A stretch of DNA of 64,000 bases from Candidatus Peregrinibacteria bacterium (lineage in GTDB: Bacteria > Patescibacteriota > Gracilibacteria > UBA1369), in NCBI GenBank assembly GCA_963708185.1, contig OY970195.1:1088001-1152000 (forward strand), read 5' to 3'. Below are positions 18,650 through 30,065 of the stretch, in pieces; within the stretch, counting starts at the first letter, position 1; every line of letters starts with the position of its first letter. The notes under the pieces are model-generated. The model saw nothing but the letters and a program-made list of their open reading frames with translations. It was not told where the DNA came from and did no database searches. A program made the translations under genes and the position numbers.

Positions 18650-19873
18650 TTAGACCTTTTTTAGGTTTTTGAGGTACTCGGCGAGAGCGGCGAGGGCATC
18701 CTTGAGTTCTTCAGGCTTGGCACCGAAGGACGCGCGCACGTAGCCGGGTTTGCCGAACGCCGATCCGGGGACCATAGCCACGTTGGCTTCTTCCAGAACG
18801 TGTTCGCAGAATTTGACGTCATCATAGAATTCGCGGTCAAAGGCGCGCAGCGGGACGAAGCTGTAGAACGCGGAGTGAGGCGCCTTCAGACCCGCTCCGG
18901 GAAAAAGATCGTTGAAGGTGTCGGTAAAAACATCTCGGCGGTGTTTCATTTCCTTGTTGATTTCCGGAGTGATTGTTGAGGCTTTATCCAGCGCAGCGAT
19001 GGCCGCCCACTGACTGATGATGCTGGTCCCCGTGATGCTCTGCCCCTGGATCTTGATGAGCGTTTTGGTGATCTCCTCCGGGGCGAAAACGAAGCCAACG
19101 CGCCAGCCGGTCATGCCGAAGTTCTTGGAACAGCTCTGGACGACGATAACGTGGTCCGCGTGATCCCAGAACGATCCGCAGGAAACGTATGTTTTGTTGT
19201 CGTACGTAAGACCGCTGTAGACCTCGTCGGACATGACGAAGATGTTTTTGTCGCGGCAGACATCAAGGATTTTTTTGAGCTCCTGTTCGGTGTAGAGCAC
19301 GCCCGTGGGATTGGACCCGTTATTGATGATGAGCATTTTGGTTTTGGCGGTGCAGGCCGCGGCGATTTGCTCGGGCCGGACCTTCCAGGCGTTTTCGCTT
19401 AAAACGCCATCCGCCCTTAGGGTTGAGGCGTCTTTTTCTTCGGTCTGGACGATAACCGGCCGTCCCCCAAAAAGCGAAACCATCGGCGGATAGGAAACCC
19501 AGTACGGCGCGATGACGATGACTTCGTCACCTTCGTTTAAAAGGGCCTGCAGCAGCAGATAGATGCCGAACTTGCCACCGCAGCTCACCAGGGTGTTTTT
19601 GATGGCGTAGTTAGTCTTATACAGCTCGTTCGTCCAGAGCGAGGCTTTATCGCGCAGCTCCTCGACGCCGGCGACCGGAGGATAGAGCGTACGACCCTGG
19701 TCTATGGCCAGGTCAACCTCCTGCTTCATGTAGTGCGCGGTGTTCATGATGGGTTCGCCAGCGGACAGGTTGAAAACGCGCTGGCCGGATTTCTTCTTTT
19801 CCTGGGCGATGGAATTGATCGTGACCGTCGCTGACGGCGGAATGTGGACCCGAGAGGAAAAAATGTCTTTCAT
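18650..19873 (-). CDS. Class I/II PLP aminotransferase (aspartate/aromatic)
   Basis: NLSAGEP, NGSNPTG, SDEVYS, SCSKNFGMTGWRVG, VPGSAFG. Confidence 0.95.
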   Translation of the reverse strand: MKDIFSSRVHIPPSATVTINSIAQEKKKSGQRVFNLSAGEPIMNTAHYMKQEVDLAIDQGRTLYPPVAGVEELRDKASLWTNELYKTNYAIKNTLVSCGGKFGIYLLLQALLNEGDEVIVIAPYWVSYPPMVSLFGGRPVIVQTEEKDASTLRADGVLSENAWKVRPEQIAAACTAKTKMLIINNGSNPTGVLYTEQELKKILDVCRDKNIFVMSDEVYSGLTYDNKTYVSCGSFWDHADHVIVVQSCSKNFGMTGWRVGFVFAPEEITKTLIKIQGQSITGTSIISQWAAIAALDKASTITPEINKEMKHRRDVFTDTFNDLFPGAGLKAPHSAFYSFVPLRAFDREFYDDVKFCEHVLEEANVAMVPGSAFGKPGYVRASFGAKPEELKDALAALAEYLKNLKKV

Positions 19874-19915
19874 GAAGGTCTTGAAAAGTTCACGCACACT
19901 TTAGCATGGGTTTTG

Positions 19916-20209
19916 TTATTTTTGGATGCTTTTTGACTCTTCCATGACGAGGTCAAAAATTTTGCGAAGAGTTTTGTAGGTGATGCCATGTTTTTTGGCG
20001 AGCGCCTGGTGAAATTTTTTGAGTTCTTTTTCGCGTTTAGGGTCTTTTATTTTGATGTTTTCGCGTTTTTTTATGGTACCGATTTTTCGCGAAACGGCCA
20101 TGCGCAGCGCTACGCTTCGTATGATCGATGCGTCGAGCCGGTCTATGGCGGCGCGGAGTTCAATGATGTTTTTATCGGCCTGTTTTTGAGGTTTTTTTGA
20201 TGATGTCAT
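19916..20209 (-). CDS. Chorismate mutase (type II, monofunctional)
   Basis: LRAAIDRLDASII...RMAVSRKIGTIK...DPKRE...MEESKSIQ. Confidence 0.92.
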   Translation of the reverse strand: MTSSKKPQKQADKNIIELRAAIDRLDASIIRSVALRMAVSRKIGTIKKRENIKIKDPKREKELKKFHQALAKKHGITYKTLRKIFDLVMEESKSIQK

Positions 20210-20954
20210 GATCAAGTTTTTGTAAGGATCTGAGAAAAATTTGGCGAGTTTTTTTTGTGTAAGGGTTGGCGCTTTGCATGTCGTAAAAAAGTTCCCATGT
20301 GTCGTTGTGAACCATCTCGTTCATGCGAAGCAGCGTCTGGTAATCCGGTGTTGAAATGGCTTGCGTATGCAATTTGATGTCGGCAAGAGCGCGACCGATG
20401 AAGTGTACGAGCGCCTGGGAGCGGGCCATCTGGCGGTCGTGCTGTTCAGGCGTGGCATGGATGATCTTGAGATGAAGTTCTTTGAGAATTTTTTCAAAAT
20501 TCCGGAGCTGGGTTTTACTTGAATGAACATCGCAGACAACTATTTTTTGGTTTTTGAGACCGAAACGTTTGACGGAATCGGGGCCGAACAGCGGATGGGT
20601 GGCAATGACCGGTTGTCCTTTGGGAAGCAGTTTTTCCATGGCCCTTACTGGTGCTGCTTTCACTGAGCAGGCGTCGATGACCACCGTTTCAGGAGGCAGA
20701 AGAGTAGCGATTTTTTTACAGATGTTGTCGATCCGGGAAATGGGAACGAGCAGAAAAACAAGATCGGATCTGGCGACTTCCGGGAGTGAAACAAATCGTA
20801 TTTTTTTTGAGGCAGACGAATTTCCGGATGAAATCTTATCAAAAACTTTTACCTCTCCGAGCGGTTTGAGGCAGCTCGCCCAGAGTTTTCCAAAACGTCC
20901 GTATCCGATGATGCCGAAGGTTGGTTTTGCCGATTTTGCGGCCCTTTTCTTCAT
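20172..20954 (-). CDS. tyrA: Prephenate/arogenate dehydrogenase
   Basis: GIIGYGRFG, DACSVK, ATHPLFGP, HDRQMARSQALVH. Confidence 0.93.
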   Translation of the reverse strand: MKKRAAKSAKPTFGIIGYGRFGKLWASCLKPLGEVKVFDKISSGNSSASKKIRFVSLPEVARSDLVFLLVPISRIDNICKKIATLLPPETVVIDACSVKAAPVRAMEKLLPKGQPVIATHPLFGPDSVKRFGLKNQKIVVCDVHSSKTQLRNFEKILKELHLKIIHATPEQHDRQMARSQALVHFIGRALADIKLHTQAISTPDYQTLLRMNEMVHNDTWELFYDMQSANPYTKKTRQIFLRSLQKLDHDIIKKTSKTGR

Positions 20955-21562
20955 TTTGTGACAACGATAAAAGTGGTGAGATTGGGATGATTGTCCTGGA
21001 TGCCTTTAGCCAGAAGTTTGAGTTTATAGAGCTGCGCGGAACGCGCCGGGGCGATGACGGCGGTGTCTTTTTTAAGTACGCCTTTGGCCAGATCACGGGC
21101 GGCTTTGGCCGTATCTTCCCATTCAATGAGCTGTGCATTCGGGAATTCGCGGCGGATGTATCGTTCGCACTGGGAGATGGCCTGCGGGTGGGTGGCAATT
21201 TTTTTGATCTGTTTTTTGGTGATGCCGGGTTTGACCATGAGGCACTGGTAGACTTCGAACCAGAGTTCGCCGGTGTATTTAAAAAGATGGTTCCCCATGG
21301 CTTCAAACGCCGTTTGCACAAGACCGCCGCGCGAGTTCACCACGGGAAAAATGCCGATGTCGGCCTGCCTGCGGTCGAGAGCCTTGAGCACGCCTTCCAT
21401 GTCGATGGAAAAAACGATTTTCGGTTTGATGCCGTTGCGCTGGGCGTACAACAGGCCGGCTTCTTCGCTGAACGATCCGGCGTCGCCGGAGACGGCGATG
21501 CGGAGTTGTTGCCTGACGGTAGTTCCACGGGCTGGTCGCCGTGATTTTTTAGAGGTCTTCAA
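20951..21562 (-). CDS. pheA: Prephenate dehydratase (catalytic domain only, no ACT domain)
   Basis: GDAGSFSEEA, PVVNSRGG, THPQAISQC, DTAKAA, IQDNHPNLTTF; start uncertain (TTG 21562). Confidence 0.9.
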   Translation of the reverse strand: MKTSKKSRRPARGTTVRQQLRIAVSGDAGSFSEEAGLLYAQRNGIKPKIVFSIDMEGVLKALDRRQADIGIFPVVNSRGGLVQTAFEAMGNHLFKYTGELWFEVYQCLMVKPGITKKQIKKIATHPQAISQCERYIRREFPNAQLIEWEDTAKAARDLAKGVLKKDTAVIAPARSAQLYKLKLLAKGIQDNHPNLTTFIVVTK

Positions 21563-22709
21563 GGCGTGCAGTTTTGTTAAGTAATACGTGATCAACAAGG
21601 ACGAGGGCGACCATGGCTTCTCCGATGGGGACGGCGCGGGGGGCGACGCAGGGGTCGTGGCGACCGTGGACTTCGATGGTGGCTTTACGTCCTTTTGTGT
21701 CCACGGTTTGCTGTTTTTGGGCGATGCTGGAGGCGGGTTTCAACGCGAATCTAAGGATGATGGGCTCGCCGTTGCTGATGCCGCCGACCATGCCGCCGGC
21801 GCGGTTGGTTGCGGTGCCTATGCGTTTTGAACTGTGCGAGCCGCGCGAGGATTTGACGAGCGCGGCGGATTTTGCGATCCACCGGTCGTTGTTCTGCGAA
21901 GCGCGCCGGGAGGCGACGGCGAAGCCGTCGCCGATCTCGAATCCTTTAACCGCGGGAATACTCATGATGCCTTGGGCGAGGTCGGCGGAGAGCTTGTGAA
22001 AGACCGGTTCGCCGAGGCCCGGTGGAACATTTTGGGCGATGATTTCCACGACGCCGCCGATTGAATCGAGGTCTTTGCGTGCGGTTTCGACCTCTTTGAT
22101 CATGGCCTTGAGGACTTTTGGGTCCGGGCAGCGGAGAGGGTTGGATTCGATGAATTTTTGATCAAATGTTTTGGAACGACCGCCGCCGAGAGCTGCGTGA
22201 ATGGCTTCTGCGTTGGTGATTTTTACCGTGCCGATCTGCGTGATGTAGCCGAAAATTTTGACGCCGGATTTGGCGAGGATTTTTTTGGCGATCGCACCGG
22301 CTGCCACGCGGGCAATGGTTTCCCGCGCGCTGGCTCTGCCACCGCCGCGCCAGTCACGGAAACCGTACTTGGCGTCGCAGGTAAAGTCCGCGTGGCCTGG
22401 CCTGTAGAGTTCTTTTATTTTCTCGTACGGCTTGGAAATGTGGTCTTTGTTATGGACCAGAATCGCGATGGGGGTTCCCGTGGTTTTGCCTTCAAACGTG
22501 CCGGATAAAATTTCGGCTTCGTCTTTTTCCTGGCGCGTGGTGGTGAGGTGACTCGTCCCGGGCCGGCGGCGGTCAAGTTCTTGCTGGATGTCTTTTTCGC
22601 TCAGGGCGAGTCCCGCAGGGCAGCCGTCAATGACCACGCCAATGGCTTTGCCGTGCGATTCGCCGAAAGTGGTGATTTTGAAGAGTTGTCCGAAAGAGTT
22701 TCCAGGCAT
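21549..22709 (-). CDS. aroC: Chorismate synthase
   Basis: TTFGESHG, RPGHAD, GGGRASARET, GGISNG, GRHDPCV. Confidence 0.98.
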   Translation of the reverse strand: MPGNSFGQLFKITTFGESHGKAIGVVIDGCPAGLALSEKDIQQELDRRRPGTSHLTTTRQEKDEAEILSGTFEGKTTGTPIAILVHNKDHISKPYEKIKELYRPGHADFTCDAKYGFRDWRGGGRASARETIARVAAGAIAKKILAKSGVKIFGYITQIGTVKITNAEAIHAALGGGRSKTFDQKFIESNPLRCPDPKVLKAMIKEVETARKDLDSIGGVVEIIAQNVPPGLGEPVFHKLSADLAQGIMSIPAVKGFEIGDGFAVASRRASQNNDRWIAKSAALVKSSRGSHSSKRIGTATNRAGGMVGGISNGEPIILRFALKPASSIAQKQQTVDTKGRKATIEVHGRHDPCVAPRAVPIGEAMVALVLVDHVLLNKTARLEDL

Positions 22710-22723
22710 AGTTCCCGCGGAGG

Positions 22724-23851
22724 TTAGTTAATAAAAAATTCCAAAGCTTTTTTGACGATTTTTTTATCGACAGGATGGCCGAACATGCCTTTAGCATCGG
22801 TTTTCACTTTTCCTATGCGCTCGAGCAAAACATATTTTACTTTGCCGCTGCCGGATTTTTTATCCATCAGTGTCAGCCTCAAAATATCTTCAATCTTAAA
22901 ATTGCAAAGGTCTTTTTCCTTAATACCGAACTGTTTCATGCTCTCACGCACGGTGCGGAAATCTTTTTCGCTCAATACGCCGAGCAGTTGCGCAATCTTG
23001 CTTTCCACGAGAATGCCGAGCGCCACACTGTAGCCGTGGAGAAACCTGTAGTTACTCAGATGTTCGACGGCGTGGCCGATGGTGTGTCCCCAGTTGACGA
23101 CCATGCGCTCGTTGGCTTCGTGCTCGTCACGGACAACGACGCCGATTTTGAGTTCGATTGAACGCGCGATGATTTTTTGGAGCAATGTTTGTTTTTTTGC
23201 GAGAATGTTTTTCCAGTTTTTTCTGGTGAATTCGAACGAGGGTTTGTCGTAGGTGAGAAAAATTTTCACGGACTCCATAAGGCCGTTGACGAGCTGTTCA
23301 CGGGGGAGTTTCTTGAGACAATCGGTATCGGCGATCACGGCTCTGGGATGCCAGAAAGCGCCGACGAGATTTTTGCCGTACGGCGTGTCGACGCCGACTT
23401 TTCCGCCGATGGAACTGTCGACCATGGCAAGAAAAGAGGTGGGAATTTGGATGTAAGGAATTCCGCGCATGTAGGTCGCCGCGACGTAGCCCGCGGTGTC
23501 ACCGACGACGCCACCGCCGAGGGCCAGGATCATGGTGTCGCGGCCGCATTTTTTGGCGAGCATGGCGTGGGTGAGTTTGCGGTGCGTGTCTTCGTTCTTG
23601 TACTTTTCACCGGAAGGAAAAGTGATGAGATCGGCACGCAAACCGGCTTCGTGAAAACTTTCCAGGAGTTTGTTTCCGAACAGTTTTTTCAGGGATGCCC
23701 CGGTGATAATGACGTACCTCGACGCCGGTTTGCCGTTGGAAAACTTGAAACGGCTCACGGTTTTCGGAAGATTTTTGAGCAATCCCGGCCCCACGAATAT
23801 GCGATAGTGCTGCGCTTCCGGGCGTGGCAACATGATGTCGAGTGTTTTCAT
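22724..23851 (-). CDS. aroB: 3-dehydroquinate synthase
   Basis: ALGGGVVGDTAGYVAATYMRG, DSSIGGKVG, GKNLVGAF, NWGHTIGHAVE; ATG 23851 overlaps upstream stop. Confidence 0.97.
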   Translation of the reverse strand: MKTLDIMLPRPEAQHYRIFVGPGLLKNLPKTVSRFKFSNGKPASRYVIITGASLKKLFGNKLLESFHEAGLRADLITFPSGEKYKNEDTHRKLTHAMLAKKCGRDTMILALGGGVVGDTAGYVAATYMRGIPYIQIPTSFLAMVDSSIGGKVGVDTPYGKNLVGAFWHPRAVIADTDCLKKLPREQLVNGLMESVKIFLTYDKPSFEFTRKNWKNILAKKQTLLQKIIARSIELKIGVVVRDEHEANERMVVNWGHTIGHAVEHLSNYRFLHGYSVALGILVESKIAQLLGVLSEKDFRTVRESMKQFGIKEKDLCNFKIEDILRLTLMDKKSGSGKVKYVLLERIGKVKTDAKGMFGHPVDKKIVKKALEFFIN

Positions 23852-24884
23852 GACTGTGAGGCTATGGTGTGTAAGAGTTCTTCGGTCTGTTCCCAACTCA
23901 GGCACGGATCGGTAATGGAAAGTCCCTCCTTGTCCACGGTTTCGGCGGTAAGCTTTTCGGCCTTCTGGCAACCGCTTTTGAGGAAACTTTCGAACATGAA
24001 TCCTTTGACGAGTTTGCGAAGATCGGGATACAGCTTGAGGGCGGCCATGACTTCCTGCGCCACGTTGATCTGCTGGATGGGATCTTTGACCCCGTCGATC
24101 TTGCAGTTGTCGTGGCTGGCGTCGATGACGATGGCGGGGTTGCTTACCGCGGCTTTTTCCAGGTATTTTTTGGCGATCATAATGTCTTCCACGTGGTAGT
24201 TGGGACGGTCCAGGCCGCCGCGCAGAACCAGATGCGCGTGGGGGTTGCCGTGGGTTTCGACCTGGGCGCCGTGGAACACGGCGGTGTGGCCGTGCTGCGC
24301 GGCGATGATGCTGTTGACGCCGATTTCGAGCGATCCACTCGTGGGGTTTTTCATGCCCACGGGGCATTCGACGGCGGAAGCAAAGATACGGTGTTCCTGA
24401 TCTTCGGTGCTGCGGGCGCCGATGGCCACCCAGGAGAGTAGTTCAATGAACCCTTTGGCGTTGTGGGTGAAGACCGCTTCGTCGGCGATGGGCAGGCCCA
24501 TTTCGATGACCTTCACCATCATGCTGCGTGCGTAGCGGATACCTTCCCCGATGTCCGGCGGCGCGAAGGGATCGGGCTGGTTCACGGGCCCGTCCAGCCT
24601 TTGCTCGTGCGGGGTTTCTGAATGTAGACGCGCATGATGATCTTGAGTTTGTCGTGCAGTTTCTCTTCAAGTTTTTTGAGTTTTTCCGCGTATTTGAGCG
24701 TAGCATCGTACGGCCAGGCGGAACACGGTCCGACGATGACGAGCATACGGTCATCTTTTCCGCCAAGGATGTCTTTGACCTCCTGCTTGTCGCGGGCGAC
24801 TTTTTCGTAGGCTGTATCGGAAAGCGGGAATGCCTGGATGATCTCTTCGGTACTGGGAAGCTGTTTGACGGTCGTAAGGTTCAT
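23848..24884 (-). pseudogene. Class I-alpha DAHP synthase, split by a 1-nt frameshift near 24585
   Basis: Part 1 has IVGPCS and RVYIQKPRTSKGWTGP*; part 2 continues in the -1 frame with VNQPD, AIGARSTE, PVGMKN, HLVLRGG, IDASHDN, SITDPC. Confidence 0.9.
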
Positions 24885-24919
24885 TTTTTAAGAAGAAGAA
24901 TGAAGTAAGAATATTGATT

Positions 24920-25750
24920 TTACGCAGGGAGGTCGATCATTGATATGAATTCCGGGGCGATTTTTTCATATAAAGGAGCTTTTCCGAGCCATAATTCAAC
25001 CTGGGCGAGCGCCTGGGCGATGAGCATGACGACTCCGGAAACCGTTTTGGCGCCGACGGCTTTTGCGTCTTTGAGCAGCTGCGTTTCGAGCGGATTATAA
25101 ATGAAATCGAAAACGGCCTGGTCTTTATGGAAAAGATTTTTCGGGAAGGGCGATTCGTCCGCGTGCGGTTCCATGCCCACCGGTGTCGCGTTGACGATAA
25201 CGTCGATTCTGGCTTCGTGCAGATCTTTTTCGCTGACCGATTTTCCGCCGAACTCTTTCATCAGTTCCTTCGCTTTTTGTTCTGTGCGGTTGTGACATAA
25301 AATGTTTGCTCCTTGTTTTTGCAGGAACCAGCACAATGGTCTGGCCGCACCTCCCGCTCCAAGAACGAGAACGTTTTTTGACGCCAACGGGACTCCTTCC
25401 AGCGCATGTTCGATACCGACGACGTCGGTATTATACCCGTAGAGTTTCCCGTTCAGACTCACAACCGTGTTCACCGCGCCGATTTTTTTCGCGGCGTCGT
25501 CGATGATGTCTATGTGCTTCATGACTTCCTGTTTATGGGGCAGGGTGACGGCAAGAAGATGGATAGGGAGCGTGCGCATTATGCCGATCATTTCGCCGAT
25601 ATTTTCCTGCTGAAACGCCAGCAGAACGGCGTTGACGTTCATGGTTTTGTAGATGAGTTCATGGATCTGCGGGCTCCAGGTATGCGCCAACGGGAAGCCT
25701 GTGACGGCGTTGAGCTTCGTTTGCGAGTTGAGGTGGAACTGTTTATCCAT
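24920..25750 (-). CDS. aroE: Shikimate dehydrogenase
   Basis: HTWSPQIH, VTLPHK, IGAVNT, GYNTD, LGAGGAAR, NATPVGM. Confidence 0.97.
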   Translation of the reverse strand: MDKQFHLNSQTKLNAVTGFPLAHTWSPQIHELIYKTMNVNAVLLAFQQENIGEMIGIMRTLPIHLLAVTLPHKQEVMKHIDIIDDAAKKIGAVNTVVSLNGKLYGYNTDVVGIEHALEGVPLASKNVLVLGAGGAARPLCWFLQKQGANILCHNRTEQKAKELMKEFGGKSVSEKDLHEARIDVIVNATPVGMEPHADESPFPKNLFHKDQAVFDFIYNPLETQLLKDAKAVGAKTVSGVVMLIAQALAQVELWLGKAPLYEKIAPEFISMIDLPA

Positions 25751-25756
25751 GGCTTG

Positions 25757-26227
25757 TTAACGGGATTTACGTGGTTTGCGTGATTTAGGCGCCGGTGCGA
25801 TTTTTTTGGAAAGAATTTTCAGCGCTTCGAGATAGCCTTTTTCTTTTTTCCCCGCGATCTGGGCGACGCACGCCGGCGCGGTGACTGAGGTTTTGCGCCA
25901 TTGTTCGCGTTTGTTGATGTTGGAAAGATGGACTTCCACCGCTGGAATTTCAGCGTCCAGGATGGCGTCGTGGATGGCGAAACTGTAATGGGTGAAAGCG
26001 CCGGGATTGATAATCATTCCTGCGGCTTTCGGCGCATTCTGCTGTATAAAATCGATGATCTCACCTTCGTGGTTGGACTGGAACGTTTTGACGGTGAACC
26101 CGTACTTTTTCGCTTCGCCCGCAATGAGCGCTTCAAGATTTTTCAGGGTCAACGTTCCATAATGTTTTTCGGGACGGCGTCCGAGAAAATTGAGATTCGG
26201 GCCGTGGATGAGCAGTATGGTTTTCAT
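25757..26227 (-). CDS. aroQ: Type II 3-dehydroquinate dehydratase
   Basis: HGPNLNFLGRR, QSNHEG, INPGAFTHYS, EVHLSN. Confidence 0.97.
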   Translation of the reverse strand: MKTILLIHGPNLNFLGRRPEKHYGTLTLKNLEALIAGEAKKYGFTVKTFQSNHEGEIIDFIQQNAPKAAGMIINPGAFTHYSFAIHDAILDAEIPAVEVHLSNINKREQWRKTSVTAPACVAQIAGKKEKGYLEALKILSKKIAPAPKSRKPRKSR

Positions 26228-26745
26228 GGTAATTTCTTAAGGATTTCGTTGACGGCTTCATCGACCGATCCCGTATTTTCCACGCTGATATTCGCAAGGT
26301 TTTTGAAAATCGGCTCTCGCTCCTTCCACAGCTTCTTGAAGCTGGTGATCGGCTCTTCGTCCTTCGGGAAAAATGCCGGCTTTCCGTTGATCATTATCCG
26401 TTCAAAAACGATACTCTTGGGCGCGGAAATTTCAATCACGAGATGCCGTTTTATCAACGCCCGGTTCTGTTCCGACATGGGAGTTCCTCCGCCAACCGCC
26501 AAAACCATCGGGCTGTCGGACGCGGTGATTGCGGAAAGTACGCTCGCTTCAAGTTCGCGGAAATATTTTTCCCCGTGCCGTTCCATAATACCGCGGCAGG
26601 AAAGTTTTTCTCCCTTTTGTGTTTCATGCACTTCGACGATGTTGTCGTCGAGATCCACGAAGGCCATTCCCAGGGCTTTCGCCAGGCCTTTTCCGATCGT
26701 TGATTTTCCTGAGTTTTTGAATCCTATAAGGACGATGTGTTGCAT
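26224..26745 (-). CDS. aroK: Shikimate kinase
   Basis: LIGFKNSGKSTIG, FVDLD, GEKYFRELE, AVGGG. Confidence 0.95.
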   Translation of the reverse strand: MQHIVLIGFKNSGKSTIGKGLAKALGMAFVDLDDNIVEVHETQKGEKLSCRGIMERHGEKYFRELEASVLSAITASDSPMVLAVGGGTPMSEQNRALIKRHLVIEISAPKSIVFERIMINGKPAFFPKDEEPITSFKKLWKEREPIFKNLANISVENTGSVDEAVNEILKKLP

Positions 26746-26754
26746 AAATATTTT

Positions 26755-28065
26755 TTAAACTTTGATTTCCATATTCGCGCCGATTTTGTTCATGTCATCG
26801 ACGAAGTCCGGGAAGGTCTTATTGATGCCCTCCGCGGTGTCGATTGTCGAGTCTCCGTCGGCAAGCAGTCCCGCGACGGCAAGCGCCATGATGGTGCGGT
26901 GGTCGTTGTAACCGTGGAGATCGGCACCTTTGAGTTTGCTTTGATAAATGGTGAGCGAATCTTCTTTTTCTTCGAGTTTCACGCCCATTTTCTTAAGTTC
27001 CGTTGCCATGGATTTGATGCGGTCCGTCTCCTTGATACGCGCGTTTTCAACGTTCATGAGAACGGTTTTCCCTTCCGCCTGTGTGGCGACCACGGCAAGG
27101 GTGGGAAGCATGTCGGGGATGTCGCCACAGTTGATGGTTGCTCCTTTGAGAGGCTTGTCGCCTTTCACGATAAGGTCGGTGCCTTTTACGGTGATGTCAG
27201 CTCCCATCTGCTGCAGAAGGGCAATGATCTGTTTGTCTCCCTGGGGATCGTCCATATCCAGCCCGTGAAGCGTAATATGACCGGGCAGCAAAATTCCCGC
27301 GGCGATGAGATATGAAGCCGAAGAAAAATCTCCGGGAATGATTTTATCAACCGGGTGGTACTGTTGGTTCCCGAAAATCCTGAAGGTATCCACCCCGTCT
27401 TTTTTGCTGTGCCCGTAGCGGATTTTCTGTTCGTCGAGCCAGGCCAGGGTCATGTCGACGTACGGACGTTCGTGGAGGTCTTTCACTTCGATTTCCGAAT
27501 TTTTTTTGGCACATGGGAGGCTTAGCAGCAGCGCAGAAAGATATTGCGAGTTTGTCCCGTCAACCGTTGCGTAGCCTCCCGCAAGTTCACCTCTTAACCC
27601 AAGTGGACAACTATCGTTGTTGTCATATGATACGACTTCCATCCCCAGATCTTTGACCGCCTGGATGATGCTGGCGAGCGGTCTTTTTTGCATCTGTTCC
27701 CCGCTGGCGAGGGTCAACAGGACCTCGGGATCTTGGCGAAGACCGATGAGCGGGATGGTCAACGTTGTGGTAATGCCGGAATTTGCGGAAAAAAGATCCG
27801 TTTCTGCTGTATCGAGCGGAACCCCTTCACTCTCCACGGTCACTTCAAGTCCGCCGGAACTGTTTTCGGTGTAATTGATGGTGGCGCCAAGCTTTCTGCA
27901 GACGTCAATGGCGGCGCGACCGTCCTCGGCATCCAGCAGATTATGCAAATGCGATGTCCCGCTCGCCATCGTCGCAATGAAAAGGGCTCGCACCGAGTGG
28001 GATTTCGAGCTTGGAGTCAGCGCTTCTCCGTGAAGTTCTTTCACGGGGTGGATGATGATTTTCAT
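26755..28065 (-). CDS. aroA: EPSP synthase
   Basis: PSSKSHSVR, NSG, SQYLSALL, PGDFSSA, RIKETDRI, DHRTIMA. Confidence 0.98.
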   Translation of the reverse strand: MKIIIHPVKELHGEALTPSSKSHSVRALFIATMASGTSHLHNLLDAEDGRAAIDVCRKLGATINYTENSSGGLEVTVESEGVPLDTAETDLFSANSGITTTLTIPLIGLRQDPEVLLTLASGEQMQKRPLASIIQAVKDLGMEVVSYDNNDSCPLGLRGELAGGYATVDGTNSQYLSALLLSLPCAKKNSEIEVKDLHERPYVDMTLAWLDEQKIRYGHSKKDGVDTFRIFGNQQYHPVDKIIPGDFSSASYLIAAGILLPGHITLHGLDMDDPQGDKQIIALLQQMGADITVKGTDLIVKGDKPLKGATINCGDIPDMLPTLAVVATQAEGKTVLMNVENARIKETDRIKSMATELKKMGVKLEEKEDSLTIYQSKLKGADLHGYNDHRTIMALAVAGLLADGDSTIDTAEGINKTFPDFVDDMNKIGANMEIKV

Positions 28066-28075
28066 GGTTGGTAAG

Positions 28076-28106
28076 AAAAAAATAAAAAAGCCTTCTCCTG
28101 AAGGCT
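28076..28106 (-). terminator. Attenuator terminator (3:4 hairpin) upstream of aroA
   Basis: Minus strand AGCCTTC-AGGA-GAAGGCT followed by TTTTTATTTTTTT. Confidence 0.88.
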
Positions 28107-28134
28107 GCGAGAGGTTCCAAAACGGTCACATGCT

Positions 28135-28200
28135 CTACGCCTTCAGGTGTCTGAAGTTGTAAAAGAAGAAGTAACCGAAAGTTTTGGAAAGATTGTTCAT
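28135..28200 (-). CDS. Phe/Tyr-rich leader peptide MNNLSKTFGYFFFYNFRHLKA (pheL-like attenuator peptide)
   Basis: 21-codon ORF with 5 Phe and 2 Tyr within 9 consecutive codons, overlapping alternative hairpins. Confidence 0.9.
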   Translation of the reverse strand: MNNLSKTFGYFFFYNFRHLKA

Positions 28201-28209
28201 GACGGTTGA

Positions 28210-28239
28210 AGTATATGTCGGCGCAGGGAAAATTGTCAA
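28210..28239 (-). promoter_or_regulatory. Sigma70-like promoter of the aro operon
   Basis: TTGACA-N18-TATACT ending 10 nt before the leader ATG. Confidence 0.65.
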
Positions 28240-28276
28240 TTTGCTTTTGTGTCCGTTGCCCGGTTCCACACAACAA

Positions 28277-28302
28277 AAAAGCCCCCGCGAGCGGGGGCTT
28301 TT
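28277..28302 (-). terminator. Intrinsic terminator of pilin gene
   Basis: AAAAGCCCCCGC-GA-GCGGGGGCTTTT; U tract on minus strand. Confidence 0.88.
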
Positions 28303-28322
28303 GAACGTCTTGTCAAAATCTC

Positions 28323-28721
28323 TTAGCCTGTCGCTCCGCCTCCGCCTGCACCAAGAACGGTGTTGACGATAGCGAATGAAAGCAGGATCACGACGATACC
28401 GATAACGGCATACATGATGATCTTTTTTGCAGATTCGATCTTTTCCTGGTTACCTGCAGCGGTGACATAGAGGAAACCTCCGTAAATGATCATCACCACG
28501 GCAATCAAACCGAGGAAGGTGAGAAAGAAGTTTACAATGGTTAAAGCCAAAGAACGGAAACTTCCCTGACCGCCCGTGGCAGTGCTGATAGCTTGAGGGT
28601 TGTCTGTCGGGCTAATGAAGCCTTGTGCGTTCGCGGTAAGAACCGGAGCAAATGATGCCATCATGAGTGCCATGCTTGTAACAAAGCCGACGGCAATATG
28701 TTTGAGAGATTTTTTTGACAT
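28323..28721 (-). CDS. Pilin-like protein (TrbC/VirB2-like, CPR type)
   Basis: Signal peptide plus two TM helices, IAVVMIIYGGFLYVTAAGNQEKIESAKKIIMYAVIG. Confidence 0.85.
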   Translation of the reverse strand: MSKKSLKHIAVGFVTSMALMMASFAPVLTANAQGFISPTDNPQAISTATGGQGSFRSLALTIVNFFLTFLGLIAVVMIIYGGFLYVTAAGNQEKIESAKKIIMYAVIGIVVILLSFAIVNTVLGAGGGGATG

Positions 28722-29887: not shown

Positions 29888-29963
29888 GCCACCTTAGCTC
29901 AGTTGGTAGAGCAATTGTTTTGTAAACAATGGGTCGTCGGTTCGAGTCCGACAGGTGGCTCCA
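29888..29963 (+). tRNA. tRNA-Thr(TGT)
   Basis: GCCACCT acceptor stem, anticodon arm ATTGT-TTTGTAA-ACAAT, GTTCGAGTC, CCA. Confidence 0.97.
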
Positions 29964-29979
29964 TTCGCACATGTTTTAC

Positions 29980-30065
29980 GGGCAGGTACTCAAGCGGCCA
30001 ACGAGGGCAGACTGTAAATCTGCTGGCTCACGCCTACGGGGGTTCGAATCCCTCCCTGCCCACCA
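29980..30065 (+). tRNA. tRNA-Tyr(GTA)
   Basis: GGGCAGG acceptor stem, GCAGA-CTGTAAA-TCTGC, long variable arm, GTTCGAATC, CCA. Confidence 0.97.

Follow-up and report, generated by a model that had tools for sequence, protein, structure and literature searches.

The locus described here raises the question of whether a short open reading frame (ORF), rich in phenylalanine and tyrosine codons and lying between a promoter and aroA, allows a CPR bacterium to open its shikimate operon according to the supply of the operon's own end products. CPR bacteria (Patescibacteria) are mostly uncultured, are believed to be without most pathways of amino-acid synthesis and are usually viewed as metabolically dependent symbionts, and to our knowledge almost nothing is known of their gene regulation. 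In attenuation of the trpL/pheL type, the position of a ribosome on the leader ORF selects either a terminator or an antiterminator. The original prediction, made from the letters of the window (the whole 64,000-nt stretch of DNA that was analysed), proposed a dual Phe/Tyr attenuator of this type in control of the whole shikimate operon.

All of the named features (promoter, ORF, repeats, pairing arms and terminator) were recovered on the minus strand at their predicted positions, to the nucleotide, and the Phe/Tyr leader element before aroA is confirmed as a real sequence feature (Table 1). Phenylalanine and tyrosine account for 7 of the 21 leader codons. The leader promoter agrees with the consensus at 11 of 12 positions and is the top minus-strand promoter-like site between positions 19000 and 31000. 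The hairpin, which was called terminator-like, has a short stem (7 bp, -10.2 kcal/mol), ends 23 nt upstream of aroA and is followed by a T-rich tract of 13 nt (12 T and one A). The leader region measures roughly 115 nt and the whole element about 165 nt.

Table 1. Positions in the window of the leader element, the aro operon and the upstream pilin gene
Feature	Position	Strand	Basis or remark
-35 hexamer TTGACA	28234..28239	minus	read from sequence
-10 hexamer TATACT	28210..28215	minus	18-nt spacer; end 9 nt upstream of leader ATG
Leader ORF, 21 codons + TAG, MNNLSKTFGYFFFYNFRHLKA	28135..28200	minus	ATG 28200, TAG 28137-28135
Putative regulatory aromatic codon cluster Y10 F11 F12 F13 Y14 N15 F16	28153..28173	minus	sequence
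Segment 1 (UUUUAC..CUUCAG), 5' arm of helix 1:2	28151..28164	minus	folding
Segment 2 (CCUGAAGGCGUAGAG), stop codon included	28133..28147	minus	predicted to pair with segment 1 or, via 28147-28139, with segment 3
Segment 3 (AGCCUUCAGG)	28097..28106	minus	antiterminator 3' arm 28105-28097 and terminator 5' arm 28106-28100
Segment 4 (GAAGGCU 28095-28089) and U tract (28088-28076)	28076..28095	minus	intrinsic terminator 3' arm and tail
Repeats CTTCAG / CTGAAG	28156-28151 / 28146-28141	minus	sequence
Antiterminator arms CCTGAAGGC / GCCTTCAGG	28147-28139 / 28105-28097	minus	sequence
Terminator arms AGCCTTC / GAAGGCT, then TTTTTATTTTTTT	28106-28100 / 28095-28089	minus	sequence
aroA (EPSP synthase), first structural gene	26755..28065	minus	Pfam PF00275, E = 2.7e-92; ATG 28065
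Remaining operon genes, aroK to aminotransferase	18650..26745	minus	Pfam matches
DAHP synthase, in two frames	24884-24582 and 24585-23848	minus	Pfam
Chorismate mutase	20215-19916	minus	Pfam
Class I/II aminotransferase, last gene	19897-18650	minus	Pfam
Type IV secretion pilin, upstream gene	28721-28323	minus	PF18895
Strong terminator of the pilin gene itself	28302-28277	minus	terminator-like site

The proposed control of the whole shikimate operon is supported by the gene content downstream, and the operon proved larger than first stated, with Pfam matches for 11 genes in the order aroA, aroK, aroQ, aroE, DAHP synthase, aroB, aroC, prephenate dehydratase, prephenate dehydrogenase, chorismate mutase and aminotransferase. 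It spans the full path from PEP and E4P to Phe and Tyr, with short intergenic gaps and some overlapping genes; the DAHP synthase gene is broken by a frameshift in this assembly. The sole minus-strand terminator-like site within the operon is weak (5 pairs, 19110-19095) and falls inside the last gene; past the aminotransferase gene, the minus strand shows no convincing terminator that would mark the 3' end of the operon. On the upstream side, the pilin gene already has a terminator of its own; the leader element, with a promoter in front of it and the next gene behind it, therefore does not belong to the 3' end of the pilin gene.

The element also stands alone within its genome. A scan of all 1,437,033 bases of the genome covered 393 intergenic regions at least 90 nt long and searched them for a small ORF that runs in the same direction as the downstream gene and has a terminator behind it. 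After filtering, the aroA leader was the sole combination with five aromatic residues per five-residue window, the runner-up ORF having four aromatic residues. In the same 393 regions, nothing emerged as a credible leader for Trp, His, Leu or Thr. Apparent Trp, Thr and Leu leaders from the unfiltered scan (at genome positions of about 98,000, 371,000 and 84,400) were rejected, as they lie inside coding regions or gene 3' ends.

Very probably, the element works by ribosome-mediated transcription attenuation as known from trpL/pheL, and it is predicted to open the operon for Phe and Tyr synthesis when the cell runs low on charged tRNA-Phe and probably also on charged tRNA-Tyr. In this model, the transcript would start at the leader AUG or a few bases upstream, and a ribosome would occupy the 21-codon leader while RNA polymerase makes the leader region. 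With ample charged tRNA-Phe and tRNA-Tyr, the ribosome would reach the UAG codon and cover segment 2, the 3:4 terminator would form and transcription would stop short of aroA. With charged tRNA-Phe or tRNA-Tyr scarce, the ribosome would stall in F12-F13-Y14 and melt segment 1, leaving segment 2 free; segments 2 and 3 would then form a 9-bp antiterminator, no terminator would form and the polymerase would enter the 11-gene operon. From the leader we infer dual Phe and Tyr sensing as well as a need for a ribosome that closely trails the polymerase (transcription-translation coupling); attenuation is listed among the processes involving such coupling in the available part of a review of coupled transcription and translation (PMC7858274).

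Folding of the alternative structures, which had been proposed as a check, gave results consistent with this model. The 140-nt leader RNA has a predicted energy of -37.5 kcal/mol (z = -4.0), and none of 200 shuffles folded equally well or better. In the switch model, progressive masking from the 5' side mimicked the ribosome and the remaining RNA was refolded. The unmasked leader RNA, or the RNA masked up to 28160, is predicted to form helix 1:2 together with the terminator; with the mask ending at 28155-28148 the 9-bp 2:3 antiterminator is present and the terminator absent, and with the mask ending at 28145 or further the terminator is back. Translated into codons, the terminator is off solely with F12, F13 or Y14 in the A site when the ribosome 3' edge is placed at A+12, and solely with F13, Y14 or N15 when it is placed at A+9, while every other A-site codon, the stop codon included, leaves the terminator on. 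The isolated helices have energies of -11.3 (extended 1:2), -22.0 (2:3) and -10.2 (3:4) kcal/mol.

As a control, the upstream 97 nt were dinucleotide-shuffled with the terminator kept, and some terminator-off state appeared in 85 of 300 sequences and the full on-off-on pattern in 23 of 300; the fold logic of a single sequence is therefore weak evidence, and the weight rests on comparative data. A long-range helix in the single-sequence minimum free energy fold (28189-28181 with 28124-28116) was set aside, as it is missing from the RNAalifold consensus of 10 homologues. That same consensus recovered the extended helix 1:2 (UUUUAC..CUUCAG with CUGAAG..GUAGAG) and the terminator. Constrained folding and recurrence in relatives together confirm the attenuator geometry, with its mutually exclusive 1:2, 2:3 and 3:4 pairings.

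Depositors have labelled the nearest genomes Candidatus Peribacteria, Peregrinibacteria or Gracilibacteria, in agreement with the earlier description of the host as a CPR bacterium. Homologous leaders were found in three of the four congeners (G002, MNNPSKTYGYFFYNFSHLKA; G003, MNNSTKNFGYFFYNFSQLKA; G001, MNNSFKTYGYFFYNFSNLKA), and the fourth (G004) carries the pilin gene, terminator and aroA in the same arrangement without any leader. Four more Peribacteria-labelled genomes have leaders reading MNNIAKAQNWFYFYNFSHVKA, MNNLAKTQNWYYFYNFTHLKA or ..NTFGYYFWNFNNVKA. Additionally, two metagenome contigs (L116 and L130) contain homologous leaders (MNNPSKTFGYFFYNFSTLKA and MNNSQKTYGYYFYNFSYLKA); the other 34 of the 36 metagenome matches to a pattern with 18 specified bases were discarded as chance matches within unrelated sequence. 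In other CPR-labelled genomes, leaders that cannot be aligned to these occupy the same place (e.g., MNTNTRAFYFYFWKTS, MIKKQASYFYFWSNLTEALFSVSA and MQGTSSRSYFYFYFTS), and the genomes with such differing leaders are deposited as Magasanikbacteria, Taylorbacteria, 'Saccharibacteria' and Patescibacteria group.

The recurrence was quantified by counting as a leader any ORF of 6 to 45 codons that opens with ATG, has five or more F/Y/W among six residues and precedes a terminator. This arrangement precedes aroA in 23 of 99 unique upstream regions, mostly CPR-labelled, compared with 0 of 99 in each of 30 rounds of dinucleotide shuffling; the 23 loci are not independent, representing roughly a dozen distinct sequence types, many of them mutually unalignable. 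In 19 of the 23 leaders, the modelled terminator was on when the stop codon occupied the A site and off at two or more aromatic codons, a behaviour seen in 33 of 575 shuffles (5.7%); the four leaders that did not switch in this way are L004, L066, L072 and L087. In the 10-homologue alignment, 87-93% of cells in the three helices are paired (93% for helix 1:2) compared with 18-67% when the helices are slid. Most pairs in segments 1-4 are invariant in this alignment, with one or two compensatory pairs per helix (a U-A pair replaced by C-G in the terminator, and a C-G pair by G-C in helix 1:2), and covariation measures over these 10 homologues with nearly invariant segments are mostly no better than in shuffles. 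Of the expectation that related aro loci would carry aromatic-rich upstream ORFs with covarying stems, the first part is borne out by the F/Y/W ORFs with terminators, but the stems are mostly invariant and the covariation is weak.

The codons of the leaders vary in a manner that may reflect the pathways of their hosts. A trpA gene (PF00290) was found in none of the 6 genomes with a Trp-free leader vs. 9 of the 13 with Trp codons in the leader, suggesting that leader Trp codons track the presence of trpA; since the counts are small and the genomes related, the link is only suggestive and the counts overstate independence. The Trp-free leaders belong to three separate lineages (G000, G001, G002, G003, G058 and G066), with genome completeness of 99%, 90%, 100%, 79% and 100% for the first five and none reported for G066. 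The four genomes with a Trp-containing leader and no trpA match are G034 (95% complete) and G062, G063 and G071 (completeness unreported). No trpA match above the cut-off was found in the 99%-complete single-contig genome studied here or in its four congeners.

Variation within the aromatic run bears on which amino acids are sensed. Among relatives, F, Y and W are interchangeable in the run and the codons TTC/TTT and TAC/TAT vary, which is the pattern expected of selection on the codons read and not on the RNA. The attenuator could instead sense Phe only, the Tyr codons being passengers, tolerated for the likeness of Tyr to Phe or kept as bases for helix 1:2, a reading that we consider unlikely while granting it a real chance. 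In the corynebacterial leader aroR of C. glutamicum (Phe-Tyr-Phe, before aroF; Neshat et al. 2014, as described in the accessible text of PMC11802643), Phe limitation raised transcription and Tyr availability had no effect. In the present leader, the A-site codons that switch the terminator off at the A+12 footprint specify Phe in two cases out of three, and the UAC of Y14 belongs to helix 1:2. Against Phe-only sensing, Y14 lies within the predicted antitermination window at both footprints, relatives freely swap F for Y in the window (YYFY, YYFW, WYYFY) and the operon encodes a prephenate dehydrogenase besides the prephenate dehydratase. The variation of Trp codons with trpA further suggests that each aromatic codon type serves sensing.

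A second possibility denies the small ORF any sensory role, making the terminator constitutive and leaky or giving a hydrophobic peptide a function of its own, with the pairings incidental. The on-off-on shuffles of the element's own upstream sequence and the weak covariation speak for this reading; it is nevertheless very improbable in view of the comparative counts, as the aromatic cluster, terminator and register recur in loci that cannot be aligned (23 of 99 vs. 0, and 19 of 23 vs. 5.7%). Outside the aromatic run, the leader peptides have little in common, and in all cases the element has a promoter on one side and the aro operon on the other, both of which also argue against a peptide with its own function or an incidental ORF.

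For the attenuator model, translation of the leader would have to begin in an unusual setting, with the -10 box ending only 9 nt before the ATG. No SD-like word precedes the leader ATG in any of the 23 family members. Genome-wide, SD-like words precede 55 of 1231 crude gene starts (longest-ORF calls, possibly wrong) vs. 103 at a control distance, which amounts to no enrichment, even though the 3' end of the 16S rRNA reads CACCTCCTT. In a genome without SD enrichment, an SD-less leader is nothing special. The spacing of the promoter is more distinctive: a TANNNT box ends 7-11 nt upstream of the leader ATG in 16 of 23 leaders vs. 1-5 of 23 in other 5-nt windows, and a full TTGAC-spacer-TANNNT promoter is found at that spacing in 12 of 23 leaders vs. 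0-2 elsewhere. In the genome at large, the usual distance from the end of such a promoter to the start codon is 21-27 nt (20 of 30 promoters), and two congeners have an ordinary 21-nt spacing from promoter to leader ATG. The short spacing between -10 box and ATG makes a 5' leader of 0-4 nt likely for this element and probably typical of the family, and the earlier view of the ORF as nearly leaderless and without an SD sequence is thus indirectly supported.

Short ORFs of this kind may also act at another level. Leaderless poly-Cys short ORFs of mycobacteria sense Cys and act on translation, as described in the accessible part of Canestrari et al. (10.1101/834739); as is predicted for the present leader, they are SD-less sensory ORFs at or near the transcript 5' end on which a stalled ribosome remodels the RNA, and they differ in that the output there is an unmasked ribosome-binding site of the next gene in response to Cys, and here would be an intrinsic terminator in response to Phe/Tyr. 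With such precedent, and with the aroA start only 23 nt past the hairpin, stalling might act mainly on aroA translation or on Rho-dependent polarity. This is hardly probable at the present locus: the 13-nt T-rich tract is typical of intrinsic terminators and follows the hairpin in relatives as well, the aroA start is free of sequestration in every predicted fold, and the genome has no SD enrichment that could be masked.

The Rfam results bear on control without a ribosome. No Rfam 15 family, T-boxes and riboswitches included, was found on the element at E up to 10, the covariance models of the E. coli-type Phe_leader (RF01859) and Trp_leader did not match it, and in 20 related leader-bearing loci Rfam yielded nothing at E up to 0.1. 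The only Phe_leader match (28 bits, E = 0.063, gathering threshold 55 bits) lies at 28272-28376, on the pilin terminator, and was rejected. Ligands, T-box-like RNAs and RNA-binding proteins control aromatic amino-acid genes in other bacteria, but a terminator governed here by a ligand, uncharged tRNA or a protein, with the ORF irrelevant, is very improbable, given the Rfam results, a leader region of only about 115 nt and the conservation of start, stop and aromatic codons but not of RNA sequence.

Set beside known systems, the attenuator model resembles E. coli pheL-pheA and trpL-trpE in its short ORF with a run of end-product codons, its 1:2, 2:3 and 3:4 helices and its intrinsic terminator right before the first biosynthetic gene. 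Unlike those leaders, the codon run is mixed Phe/Tyr instead of being devoted to one amino acid, the element is SD-less and probably near-leaderless, and the host belongs to the CPR and not to the Gammaproteobacteria; the predicted control, moreover, extends over the common shikimate pathway and both terminal branches, unlike pheL, which controls pheA alone. The C. glutamicum aroR leader is another mixed Phe/Tyr leader before shikimate genes, one that works by ribosome stalling, as judged from the partial description available (PMC11802643), and differs by that description in its phylum and in its first gene, which is aroF (DAHP synthase) there and aroA here.

Upstream ORFs (uORFs) with Phe/Tyr codons have also been proposed from comparative analysis in other phyla. 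In the accessible portions of two reports, Stav et al. 2019 describe two F/Y uORFs associated with shikimate genes (PMC6429828), and uORFC-13-1 precedes aroF in DNA from Acholeplasma and from environmental samples (PMC8632094). Those motifs share with the present leaders a conserved Phe/(Tyr) uORF, promoter boxes and an adjacent terminator; going by their descriptions, they are set apart by a purine-rich ribosome-binding site and a position before aroF, compared with the SD-less leaders before aroA in CPR genomes. The CPR leaders could conceivably overlap with environmental members of the published motifs. Our literature searches found no paper on leader-peptide attenuation in CPR/Patescibacteria and nothing relevant on shikimate in Peribacteria, in line with the original statement of being aware of no such attenuator in this lineage. 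On sequence evidence, what is new about the CPR leaders is the conserved family; the mechanism is a textbook one.

As the mechanism is textbook and F/Y shikimate uORFs have been published for other phyla, the gain lies in distribution and detail and not in principle, the points of interest being the spread across CPR lineages, the SD-less and probably leaderless start, and leader codons that match pathway content. If the attenuator model is true, the conserved leader is direct sequence evidence that in CPR bacteria a ribosome trails RNA polymerase closely enough to decide termination, that translation needs neither an SD sequence nor, probably, a 5' leader to begin, and that the few lineages that keep the shikimate pathway regulate it by end-product supply. 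The compact element (about 165 nt) would be easy to test in a heterologous reporter.

A broader proposal, about as likely as not, is that a family of uORFs sensing aromatic amino acids, near-leaderless and without an SD sequence, has travelled with one aro operon type through many CPR lineages, its codons tuned to the pathway of each host. Such a family would imply close coupling of transcription and translation in CPR bacteria and autonomous control of their amino-acid synthesis, at odds with the usual view of them as dependent symbionts. Among the depositor labels within this proposed family are Peribacteria, Magasanikbacteria, Taylorbacteria and 'Saccharibacteria'. The aroA type is present in 4 of 401 genomes sampled evenly from the phylum (E up to 1e-60), and 3 of these 4 have the leader. 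A FastTree phylogeny of 78 AroA rows, which was quick and offers no basis for rooting or for a direction of transfer, places all CPR-labelled rows in a 64-row clade. Nested within that clade is a subclade of 32 rows whose deposited labels are mostly Gammaproteobacteria or Legionellales, and leaders by the strict criteria occur in 2 of these 32 rows vs. 20 of the 32 other clade rows. The aro operon type has probably passed between lineages together with its leader. At several of the gamma-labelled loci, F/Y/W ORFs are present without a canonical terminator.

Among the congeners of the genome holding the window (G000), G004 (upstream regions L005 and L034, which are identical) preserves the gene order, with aroA following the pilin gene and the pilin terminator, and both the leader ORF and the second terminator are absent upstream of aroA in this genome. 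G004 is a natural case of attenuator loss or non-acquisition inside the genus. A clear leader homologue, MNNSQKTYGYYFYNFSYLKA, was found together with its terminator on a metagenome contig (L130), where the gene 3' of these elements starts MNPQHIILI.., differing from the MKL or MKI start of aroA in the relatives.

Seven further loci upstream of aroA were deposited as Coxiellaceae, Legionellales or Gammaproteobacteria (L044, L055, L078, L050, L052, L053 and L066). Their aroA is related (approximately 50% identity), and all seven contain F/Y/W-rich ORFs (e.g., ..SFFFYFGL and ..SFFFYFWPPGQA). In most of them the stop codon of the ORF coincides with a GGCC..GGCC hairpin. A canonical terminator, as defined in this study, was not found in six of these loci; one was called in L066, a call that is doubtful. 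The gamma-labelled ORFs may represent the same kind of sensor with a different read-out.

Two weak Rfam matches, Phe_leader at 28 bits and Leu_leader at 23 bits, both below threshold, fall on the terminator that ends the type IV secretion pilin gene. They are a false lead, probably caused by the strong G+C hairpin and T tail of this terminator.

Across G000, no Shine-Dalgarno enrichment was found before genes (55 of 1231 crude starts vs. 103 at the control distance), despite the canonical 3' end of the 16S rRNA (CACCTCCTT). Typical promoters in this genome end 21-27 nt upstream of start codons; 5' leaders are therefore short.

Coordinates of additional features in the window
Feature	Position	Strand	Remark
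DAHP synthase (PF00793), two frames	24884-23848, break near 24590-24575	minus	Pfam profile match
N-terminal part of the 'aroB' ORF	24367-23800	minus	188 aa without Pfam match
Rfam matches on the pilin gene terminator	28272-28376	minus	weak Rfam matches
tRNA-Thr(TGT) and tRNA-Tyr(GTA)	29888-30065	plus	between murB and acetolactate-synthase-like gene

Within the operon, the DAHP synthase gene is split into a first piece of 100 aa matching positions 8-69 of the profile and a second piece of 245 aa matching positions 85-268, with a short G/C run at the site of the break. The gene is a single open frame of 353-359 aa in all four congeners, and the operon copy is the sole DAHP synthase of G000; the split is either a true frameshift or a homopolymer error of the assembly. 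The 3' half of this gene is overlapped, in a different frame, by the N-terminal part of the 'aroB' ORF, which is 547 aa long with that part included, and the true aroB start probably lies near 23800.

The tRNA-Tyr gene lies approximately 1.8 kb from the Phe/Tyr leader, a closeness that is probably coincidental.
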